From Chiloscyllium plagiosum (Eukaryota), in assembly GCF_004010195.1 (NCBI RefSeq), contig NC_057719.1, forward strand, positions 29,488,822 through 29,528,788: a DNA stretch of 39,967 nucleotides. The letters run 5' to 3'. Positions 4,810 to 36,298 of the stretch are shown piece after piece (the stretch's first letter is position 1; the number at the start of each line of letters is the position of its first letter). The position numbers and the translations under genes are program-made. Below the pieces are notes generated by a model. That model saw nothing but the letters and a program-made list of their open reading frames with translations. It was not told the DNA's origin and made no database searches.

Positions 4810-6075
4810 AGAACACAGAACAGTACAGCACAGTACAGGGCCTTGATGTTGTGCTGACCTTTTACTCCTACTCTAAAAGCAGACAAACCTACATACCTTC
4901 ATGTATTATCATCCATATGCCTATCCAAGAGTCGCTTAAATGTCCCTAATGTATCTGTCTTTACCACTGCTGGCTGTGCATTCAATGCACCCACCACTCT
5001 CTGAGTAAAGAACCTATCTCTGACATCTCCCCTAAACCTTCCTCCAATCACCTTAAAACTATCAGAGAAAATGCTGGAAAATCTCAGCAGGTCTGTCAGC
5101 ATCTGTAAGGAGAGAAAAGAGCTGATGTTTCGAGTCTAACTGACCTTTTGTCAAAGCAGATTCTTTACACCTTAAAACTATGCCCTCTTGTGATAGACAT
5201 TTCCACCATGGGAAAAAGTCTCTGGCTATCCACTCTATTTATGCCCCTCATCATCTTGTACATCTCTATCAAGTCACCTCTCATCCTTCTTTGCTCCAAT
5301 GAATAAAGTCCTAGCTCCCTCAACCTTTCCTCATAAGACATGCTCTCCAGTCCAGGCAGCATCCTGGTAAATCTCCTCTGTACCCTGTCTAAAGCTTCCA
5401 CATCTTTCCTGTAATGAGGTGACCAGAACTCAACACAATACTCCAAGTGTAGTCTAACCAGGACTCTACAGAGCTGCAGCATAACCTCGCGGCTCTTAAA
5501 CCCAATCCTCCTGCTACTGAAAGCCAACACACCATACACCTTCTTTACAACCCTATCAACTTGGATGGCAACTTTGAGGGATCTATGGACATGGACTCAA
5601 AGATCCCTCTGTTCCTCCACACTGCCAAGAATCCTGCCTTTGAGCCTGTAATGCGCATTCAAATTCGACCTTCCAAAGTGAATCACTTCACACTTTTCCA
5701 GATTGCACTCCATCTGCCACTTATAAGTCCAGTTCTGCATCCTGTCAATGGTCTGTTGCAACTTACAACAGCCCTTCACACTATCCACAACTCCACCAGC
5801 CTTCATGTCATTGGCAAACTTACTAATCTACCCTTCCACTTCCTCATCCATGTCATTTATAAAAATCACAAAGAGCAGAGGTCACAGAACCGATTCCTGC
5901 GAAACACCATGAGTCACCAAGCTCCAGGCTGATAACTTTCCATCTACCACCACTCTCTATCTTCTATTGGCCAGCCAATCTTTTATCCAGTCACCCAGAT
6001 TTCCCTAGATCCCATGCCTCCTTACATTCTGAATGAGCCTACCATGGGGATTCTTATCAAACACCTTGCTAAAAC
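4810..6075 (-). mobile_element. CR1 LINE 3' fragment (decayed RT C-terminus and 3'UTR), interrupted at 5063-5167
   Basis: ORF pieces RLHLEYCVEFWSPHYRKDVEALDRVQRRFTRMLPG, KCEVIHFGRSN and RFFTQRVV are typical of CR1 ORF2. Confidence 0.9.
5063..5167 (-). mobile_element. 105-bp PLE-terminus-derived insert with a degenerate hammerhead motif
   Basis: Flanked by the 14-bp direct repeat CACCTTAAAACTAT (5049-5062 and 5168-5181). Minus strand 5157-5121 reads GCT TTGACAA AAGGTCAGTTAGACTC GAAACATC AGC. Confidence 0.75.
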
Positions 6076-6957
6076 TCATGTATCACTGAGGCAAGGAAAG
6101 GAAGGTAGGTTGAAAGAAGGGATGGTGGGTGACAAGGGATGGAGAACATCTAGTCTAGAGGAAGGAGTAAGCTTACTTAAGATTGAGGAAGCAAGGATCA
6201 GACAGGATTTTAGAGAGTTACAAGCTAGCCAATCTAGAAGACCCCAAGTGTGTTGTCTGTGCTGAGTTACCAATTTTAACCAGAAAAACAGATCAAATGC
6301 TATAAGCAGCCACAAAATTCTTGGGAATAGTGCTATCAAAGGAACCTGTTGGACATTATTGGATTCAGCTGTCACACCCTTCACAGAAACAACCGACAGT
6401 CATTTACACCTTTCCTCAAACAATCTTGGCAAAGACCTGGGAATCTGCCAACATCCTTGTAAACATGCCTCAGCATGAGTCTCAGTATTTGCAGCAGAGA
6501 GAAAAAAAATGGCAAATCCATTTTAAAGGCACCAGGAATAAAATGAATTTGCAGAGTGACTCAGCTTTAAAGAGCAATTTCCTCTTTGTGACCGAAACCA
6601 GTTTACTGCCTCTGCTGGACAATAAAACCAAAATACACATTTTTAAAAATTCCCCTTGATGTTTGTTGCTAAAATATGGATAGTTCTCTAAAGGCTGTCA
6701 GACTGGATGGAAATTTTTAGTCACTTTTAACATTCAATAGAGGATCTTTTCTGCAGTTTAGAATATAACCCGCCTACGGAACTAATGTTTAGTCAATGTG
6801 GCTTTTAGTTTGTGTGTTACAGTAAAAGACTTGAAACTTGAAATCTTGCATAAATTGATTAAATTGATCACCAGGAATTCAATATTTTTTAAAGAAGTTA
6901 TTAGCCTCTATAGAAATAAAGAGTTAAAAAAATTGCATTTATGTATGACAAACTTAC

Positions 6958-35570: not shown

Positions 35571-36298
35571 CAGAGTTTGGGAGAAGATTTGTAGCTCGGG
35601 TGCTCGTTGTTGTGGTTCTGTTCGCCGAGCTGGGAATTTGTATTGCAGACGTTTTGTCCCCTGTCTCGGTGACATCCTCAGTGCTTGGGAGCCTCCTGTG
35701 AAGCGCTTCTGTGATGTTTCCTCCAGCATTTATAATGATTTGTACCTGCCGCTTCCGGTTGTCAGTTCCAGCTGTCCGCTGCAGTGGCCGGTATATTGGG
35801 TCCAGGTCGATGTGCTTATTGATTGAATTTGTGGATGCCTCTAGGAATTCCCTGGCTGTTCTCTGTTTGGCTTGTCCTATAATAGTAGTGTTGTCCCAGT
35901 CAAACTCATGTTGCTTGTCATCTGCATGTGTGGCTACTAAGGATAGCTGGTCGTGTCATTCCGTGGCTAGTTGGTGTTCATGGATGCGGACCGTTAGCTG
36001 TATTCCTGTTTGTCCTATGTAGTATTTTGTGCAGTCCTTGCATGGGATTTTGTACACTACATTGGTTTTGCTCATGCTGGGTATCGGGTCCTTCGTCCTG
36101 GTGAGTTGTTGTCTGAGAGTGGCTGTTGGTTTGTGTGCTGTTATGAGTCCTAGTGGTCGCAGTAGTCTGGCTGTCAGTTCAGAAAAATGTTTTTGATGTA
36201 TGGTAGTGTGGCTAGTCCTTTGGGTTGTGGCATGTCCTCATTCCGTAGTCTTTCCCTTAGGCATCTGTTGATGAAATTGCAGGGGTATCCGTTTCTTC
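35570..36298 (-). mobile_element. Penelope element inverted arm: GIY-YIG endonuclease C-terminus and terminus
   Basis: The minus strand reads NGYPCNFINRCL…LPYIKN…NVVYKIPCKDCTKYYIGQTG…IHEH…FDWDNTTIIG. A degenerate hammerhead lies at 35645-35684. Confidence 0.88.

Follow-up and report, generated by a model that had tools for sequence, protein, structure and literature searches.

Short hammerhead-bearing ends of Penelope-like elements (PLEs) are scattered through the genome of the shark Chiloscyllium plagiosum, and in the Neptune-type families these short copies are probably DNA copies of the uncut RNA front end of the element. Integrated copies are thus likely to have come mostly from RNA that was uncut at the ribozyme, yet the source elements kept the hammerhead fold, including a compensatory change in a core pair. 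The genome holds a very large fossil record, able to tell models of PLE hammerheads apart.

Hammerhead motifs in the window

We analysed a stretch of 39,967 nt (the window; contig NC_057719.1) in which an earlier note had reported nine hammerhead motifs, intact or with point changes. All nine are present at the positions and on the strands listed below, but only two (21128+ and 35279-) are intact and the rest are altered. We identify them as minimal type I hammerheads at the ends of PLEs from several families, of Neptune type and of Poseidon/Cercyon type. They lie in the following features.

5056..5157, minus strand: solo Neptune-type PLE end of family E (U3-A8 core), 94% to a family E copy
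11609..11695, plus strand: solo old PLE end of family D with the motif at 11609-11646, C11.1 lost, 83% to a family D copy
12919..13049, minus strand: family A copy of the UGA subfamily with the motif at 13010-13045 and a long tail, 98% to the reference copy
13049..13163, plus strand: inverted duplicate of 13457-13571 with a partial tenth motif (13051-13127), 99% repeat match
13356..13454, minus strand: family A copy of the UGA subfamily with the motif at 13416-13451 and a short tail, 95% repeat match
13486..13969, minus strand: 5'-truncated Neptune-type PLE, its translation resembling ORFs upstream of family A copies
20540..20775, minus strand: inverted arm of a Poseidon/Cercyon-type insertion (family B) with the motif at 20613-20652 (G5>A), from repeat comparison
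20776..21205, plus strand: sense arm of the same insertion with an endonuclease remnant, the intact motif at 21128-21167 and a short tail, from translation and descriptor
35211..35337, minus strand: solo family B end with the intact motif at 35279-35318, within a CR1-like fragment, 96% to the reference copy
35577..36330, minus strand: 3' part of a family B PLE with a GIY-YIG region, a dead motif at 35645-35684 and a tail (PF01541 E 0.0047, below cut-off)
36330..37940, plus strand: inverted 5' part of the same PLE ORF, with N-terminal region and RT (PF00078 E 9.4e-10), boundaries approximate

A strict descriptor (intact core, helix II of at least 3 bp and helix I of at least 3 bp) passed the two intact sites and had no match in any of 12 dinucleotide shuffles; when one changed core position was tolerated, four sites passed against a shuffle mean of 0.67. 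A chance origin of the motifs was ruled out by these shuffles and by a reversed-pattern control.

Judged copy by copy, the plain core is kept at four of the nine sites; site 5121 shows the U3-A8 form of its family, along with G10.1>A and a palindrome changed from ACGU to ACAU. Site 21128 is intact throughout, as is 35279, whose helix II G.G is also present in its family; the cores at 13010 and 13416 are intact, with CpG-type changes of the palindrome to AUGU and ACAU, respectively. Conserved positions are changed at four sites: C11.1>A at 11609 (palindrome ACAU), A6>G and G12>A at 13543 (where the closing pair of helix I is gone), G5>A at 20613 and G12>A at 35645. The helices had been said to differ between variants while staying base-paired. 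This holds across families but not at the three window sites with GGGC/GCCC, 13010 and 13416 among them, where helix I (AUUC/GAUU) has 2 bp, a U.U and 1 bp and is not fully paired. The Rfam hammerhead search that had been proposed as a check gave no return: at E<=10, Rfam 15 produced five matches in the window, none to a hammerhead family, as would be expected of motifs lacking helix III.

The nine motifs represent about seven insertion events. Those at 20613 and 21128 are inverted arms of a single insertion, while 13010 and 13416 appear to be two copies of the same subfamily on either side of an inverted, partly duplicated piece of target, the copy at 13356..13454 being the likely second cDNA of the 13010 event. 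Here also lies the partial tenth motif, at 13051-13127(+), which the earlier note had missed. The family E copy at 5056..5157 consists of motif 5121-5157 and a short tail, lies within a CR1-like fragment and is flanked by a 14-bp target duplication (5168-5181 and 5049-5062). In the 13486..13969 piece we recognized a decayed endonuclease C-terminus, a pyrimidine-rich 3' region, the dead motif at 13543-13578 and a short tail; a Pfam search of the piece gave no match. The inverted 5' part of the ORF at 35577-37940 seems to resemble the outcome of twin priming in L1, and about 45 codons are missing at the junction between the inverted 5' and the 3' ORF parts. With 10 motifs per 40 kb, the window is close in density to a genome sample (242 core-reaching copies in 1.149 Mb) and is ordinary for this genome.

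Several other elements share the window. PLE tails of a third family (C), without a hammerhead, lie at 19379-19486 (an inverted pair) and 30820-30888. Exons of a membrane-protein gene lie on the minus strand at 661-1029, 8729-9412, 21535-21780 and 24341-25048; we take the gene to be pecanex-like 4, Pfam and a protein atlas having given the exons no name. In these small numbers, the five hammerhead sites on the sense strand of this gene, in introns, are all imperfect, and the two intact sites are antisense to it or upstream of the first exon listed. CR1-like fragments are many. Non-LTR element 3' ends, 83-89% similar and with a cysteine/histidine-rich C-terminus, occupy 31000-31800 and 38284-38970 and are presumably Tx1- or L1-like, and SINE copies at 3627-3753 and 23418-23649 resemble, we assume, the shark V-SINE/HE1 type.

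Penelope-like families

The PLE origin suggested for these motifs is borne out by GIY-YIG and RT remnants directly upstream of 13543, 21128 and 35645, by PLE-type tails and by frequent inverted pairs. At 35959-38091, PF00078 scored above and PF01541 below cut-off. Of 94 family A copies, 17 have a Neptune-type endonuclease end with a CX4CXXC linker in the 500 nt before them; 15 of 27 family B copies are preceded by a Poseidon-type end, and endonuclease ends also lie upstream of some E and F copies; for family C we found neither an ORF nor an adjoining endonuclease end. A CX2-5CXXC linker is described as common to Neptune and Nematis (PMC8557442); with its CX4CXXC form in family A ORFs, families A, E and F may belong to the Neptune clade.

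The 3' ends of copies fall at two sites separated by 30-40 nt, and PLE short and long tails have been traced to two internal priming sites (Frangieh 2024, PMC11167929). Head-to-head pairs account for 123 of 216 family A copies. An optional tail of 30-40 bp, partial tandems and inverted 5' copies are given as PLE features (PMC8557442), and all were seen here. Two-unit tandems of family A span 280-540 nt with variable inserts of ORF 5' sequence (L175:2160-2650 (-) and L181-L200); isolated, they look like template jumps, and as both hammerheads would lie in one transcript they are natural dimer candidates. A short tandem run of family A tail pieces of about 42 nt occurs at G000:C5:58609948-58610355.

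Proteins labelled Chiloscyllium punctatum and Hemiscyllium ocellatum match the RT at 36739-37935 (+) with 88-91% identity. Beyond these carpet-shark copies, parasitic flatworms supply the nearest relatives of the family B RT (52-57%), ahead of fish or urchin (37-38%), and in a tree of 22 rows (21 of 240 hits listed) shark and flatworm share a branch with support of 99/96. The hammerhead of family B also nearly matches the Clonorchis motifs in Fig. S3 of PMC4209133. An old horizontal transfer between shark and flatworm, in either direction, is possible on these relationships, the sampling being hit-driven.

Genome-wide scale and decay

A very large hammerhead population had been suggested for this genome, and the counts confirm it. 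A core-only pattern matched the 3.556-Gb genome 114,779 + 114,467 = 229,246 times, against 1,080 for the reversed control, and one 27-mer alone gave 22,144 matches against none. In a sample of 120 evenly placed 10-kb stretches on the 20 largest contigs (1.149 Mb without N), the same pattern had 84 matches: helix II reached at least 3 bp in 76, helix I in 26 and both in 24, and 68 combined a helix I of at least 2 bp with a helix II of at least 3 bp. Extrapolation puts copies that pass the strict descriptor at about 65,000. Once decayed copies are included, the sample count rises to 393 fragments (A 216, D 64, C 44, B 37, E 12, F 11 and G 9), of which 242 reach the core; if the sample is representative, the whole genome has about 0.7 million core remnants.

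Scattered copies decay neutrally. Across 97 copies, core mismatches (32/966, 3.3%) were not significantly rarer than those at invariant tail positions (117/2,794, 4.2%; p=0.25). Most copies are decayed and not under selection, and nearly all are inert by-products.

Hammerhead fold and covariation

Family consensuses had been named as a check of the fold. They carry the CUGANGA and GAAA core and an NUH cut site in families A-F, together with compensatory pairing. We examined covariation in 19 copies from outside the window, chosen by the analyst as intact representatives; family C, misaligned by one column, and five other rows were left out of the alignment and two rows were added. In this set 92% of cells pair, against 22-43% in slid controls, and two-sided changes occur at eight of nine pairs; the accompanying shuffle test is inflated by relatedness of the rows. 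Within helix II, 96% of cells are paired, G10.1-C11.1 is G-C in 19/19 and three of four pairs show two-sided change. Family C has helix II GGAGC/GCUCC and an AGCU palindrome.

Helix I is at least 3 bp in B, C, D, E, F and one subfamily of A. Among 42 sampled family A copies with a full 5' arm, 37 have GAUU, giving 2 bp, a U.U and 1 bp, and 5 have GAAU; a helix I of 2 bp is on record for Drosophila virilis (PMC4209133). The palindrome is ACGU or AGCU in 8/8 representative copies, covering all families, and its centre in the 84 sample matches is CG in 52 and GC in 9, with 19 of the rest being CpG-type CA or TG. On cofolding eight copies, the hammerhead dimer was never the lowest-energy structure; nearest-neighbour folding models do not score the hammerhead core, and these energies do not decide activity. 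Selection would appear to have acted on the source elements, in which the core is invariant and the helices and the 3-8 pair covary, rather than on the scattered copies.

A family with a U3-A8 core

Site 5121 is no simple point mutant but a member of a family of roughly 3,000 copies in which C3-G8 is changed to U3-A8. The pattern for this family (E) had 3,406 matches, with A8 in 86 of 100 among the matches listed; a generic U3-A8 pattern (3,980 matches against 2,730 in the control) was too loose for counting and was replaced by the family pattern. Among 49 copies anchored on the 3' half, most of them from a search with positions 3 and 8 left free, 33 had U3 and A8, 10 had C3 and G8, one had C3-A8, none had U3-G8 and five were junctions or other. 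Within the 14 core positions, majority sequences of family E (29 copies) and its sister F (7) differ only at 3 and 8; outside the core they differ at 21 of 80 positions. Reads and contigs of two organisms on a family E copy showed no other letters at either position.

C3-G8 is the Watson-Crick pair of the hammerhead core (PMC3884650), and the U3-A8 swap is a known natural variant that is active in vitro (Perreault 2011, PMC3088659) and is also recorded in the Cercyon PLE of Schistosoma mansoni (PMC4209133). The compensatory swap in family E is identical to that of Schistosoma; unlike it, family E is a vertebrate Neptune-type family with a C3-G8 sister in the same genome, and U3-A8 is absent from the vertebrate rows of Fig. 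S3 of that survey. Since 28 of 29 family E copies have C at position 7, G8>A may have started as CpG decay and been rescued later by C3>U. The double swap suggests that the fold was kept by selection, and the E and F sisters form a natural pair suited to a comparison of cleavage.

Copy boundaries and the origin of short copies

To compare copy boundaries we set aside 54 of 178 family A rows that start at +31 or later, many of them spurious. Of the 124 retained (at least 88% identity, start at or before +30), 36 start at -5 to -1 and four at the cut site +-2. A genome-wide search that demanded three non-matching letters in the flank gave family A start counts of 6,786 for helix I, 268 for the cut site and 248 for a control position shifted on by three bases. 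Because flank probability and the letters downstream are not the same for these three patterns, the ratio is approximate. A cut template would be expected to leave copies that begin after NUH; the large excess of helix-I over cut-site starts indicates that integration likely used uncut RNA. Corrected for flank odds, cut-site starts are about 1.5 times the control, which may mark a small cleavage footprint. Families C, D and E have the same helix-I edge as A, with 18/25, 27/33 and 6/7 copies, respectively, sharing at most 12 nt upstream with any other copy, while family B showed no helix-I edge in the copy comparison. Chimeras in which a broken-off 5' part of the ORF is fused to a new helix-I start also occur, as expected of template jumps at an RNA end.

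The proposal of Cervera and De la Peña (2014), in which dimer cleavage yields unit-length or circular RNA that is then reverse transcribed, has in its favour the palindromic helix III of all families, the existence of partial tandems and the normalised cut-site excess. We nevertheless consider it unlikely that the ribozyme makes the template: helix-I starts are 25-fold above cut-site starts, CAG precedes about two-thirds of 100 cut-site matches listed, which fits microhomology at inverted arms, and a circle would have no reason to end at helix I.

Families A, C, D, E and F all have a TATA-like box upstream of the helix-I edge, at -33 to -40 counted from C3; in family A this is about 30 nt above the edge. 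The family A box reads TTTATCT or CTTATCT, unlike the textbook TATA, and the boxes of C-F come from 3-6 long copies each. We take the sequence at the edge to read as an initiator. The letter before the edge is more often G (13,677) than A (8,223), and long copies have C or T there; the excess of G arises partly from inverted-arm junctions, AGG and GGA both being frequent among the matches listed. The edge could instead mark a preferred endonuclease cut or an RT stop in the pLTR, and the endonuclease of the anole PLE does prefer 5'-ATT-3' in its own pLTR (PMC11167929); family A copies begin ATTC. This is very unlikely, as C, D and E start with other letters at equal distance from the box and a structural RT stop would be expected on the 3' side of the stem.

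We favour an uncut RNA template as the likely origin and propose the following steps. Transcription would start at the first base of helix I, directed by the TATA-like box about 30 nt upstream and the initiator-like sequence, so that the hammerhead forms the first 35 nt of a capped transcript; the excess G at junctions would be cap-like. The tail sites may serve the RT of the element as internal priming sites in the RNA; a cDNA primed at the 5' copy would be 95-130 nt long and extend across the uncut hammerhead as far as the cap. Priming of both nicked DNA ends would produce inverted pairs. Cleavage in source elements is predicted to be no more than rare, by ribozyme dimers or with the aid of an element protein. 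The scattered short copies themselves lack the putative upstream promoter. For an anole PLE in vitro, uncut RNA was reported as the main substrate and the hammerhead cut only with protein (PMC11167929), and the Penelope pLTR is described as holding a start site or internal promoter (PMC2377424); the uncut-RNA model agrees with both.

In one single-cell RNA run, 2,249 of 12.96 million reads, from both strands, fell on the family A end; 94% of them enter unrelated flanks, and reads in the ORF are few. Depth was continuous across the cut site with no pile-up of molecule ends, in a library of a kind that cannot show cut ends. These reads may be passengers in host transcripts, although this is weakly indicated. 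That the short copies form a self-propagating SINE- or retrozyme-like family, many of them working ribozymes in host transcripts, would suit their very high copy number, the reads just described and the derivation of non-LTR retrozymes from pLTRs (bioRxiv 10.64898/2026.07.22.740005). We hold this to be highly improbable: the window has no tandem array, the short copies lack the upstream box and bear the same subfamily marks as full elements, the core decays neutrally, and both-strand reads that run into flanks with continuous depth do not point to working ribozymes. We give equally little credence to a motif kept as a promoter or protein-binding element with cleavage lost, even though it overlaps the putative start, an internal promoter is known in Penelope (PMC2377424), Naiad PLEs do well with no hammerhead (PMC8557442) and the most prolific subfamilies have a weak helix I, since the U3-A8 double change keeps an RNA tertiary pair and not a DNA sequence and the helix pairs covary.

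An extension of the uncut-RNA model is more speculative, and we put it forward as a possibility that we rather doubt. In shark Neptune-type PLEs the hammerhead, as the first 35 nt of a capped mRNA, might be a self-decapping switch, with cut RNA passing to translation or decay and only uncut RNA being integrated; the U3-A8 family would then prove that selection still acts on catalysis in a retroelement of vertebrates, and the 229,000 fossils would map both the start and the state of the template to the base.

Comparison with known systems

Literature searches (without subscription papers, Repbase or Dfam) returned nothing specific on shark PLE hammerheads or vertebrate U3-A8 forms. Work by Lünse in 2017 reportedly addressed dimer cleavage of PLE hammerheads and may list shark motifs. 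Minimal type I hammerheads are established in the pLTRs of metazoan PLEs (Cervera and De la Peña 2014, PMC4209133), where they are described as dispersed single copies and opposite-strand pairs with low activity as dimers (reviews PMC6155905, PMC6765202); their function is called unclear in PMC8557442. The motifs reported here resemble them in the core, the extra base after A9, G10.1-C11.1, the palindromic 15.2-16.2 and the short helix I, and in their occurrence as dispersed single copies and opposite-strand pairs 100-700 bp apart. Neither Table S1 nor Fig. S3 of the 2014 survey includes a cartilaginous fish. Its top vertebrate counts, with a stem-requiring descriptor, are about 4,000 and 9,000, against about 65,000 (strict, extrapolated) to 229,000 (core only) here, or about 7 to 25 times the highest, and the map of copy starts given here appears to have no counterpart in that paper.

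With the Anolis Poseidon PLE (PAc, PMC11167929) the elements probably share two internal priming sites that give short and long tails, extension on both strands and an uncut-RNA substrate. The PAc ORF starts inside stem II, whereas in family A the first ORF-like sequence begins about 40 nt beyond the long tail. Non-LTR retrozymes (Li, Clavereau and Pollet 2026, bioRxiv 10.64898/2026.07.22.740005) also carry type I hammerheads related to pLTRs and are reported as tandem retrozymes in one chondrichthyan; they are tandem repeats of at least two units, whereas the window, in which no tandem retrozyme array was found, has solo or inverted PLE fragments. The motifs are new members of the published class of PLE minimal hammerheads. 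What is fresh is the U3-A8 family and the helix-I copy starts, which provide a useful natural variant of the core and a testable map of template ends.
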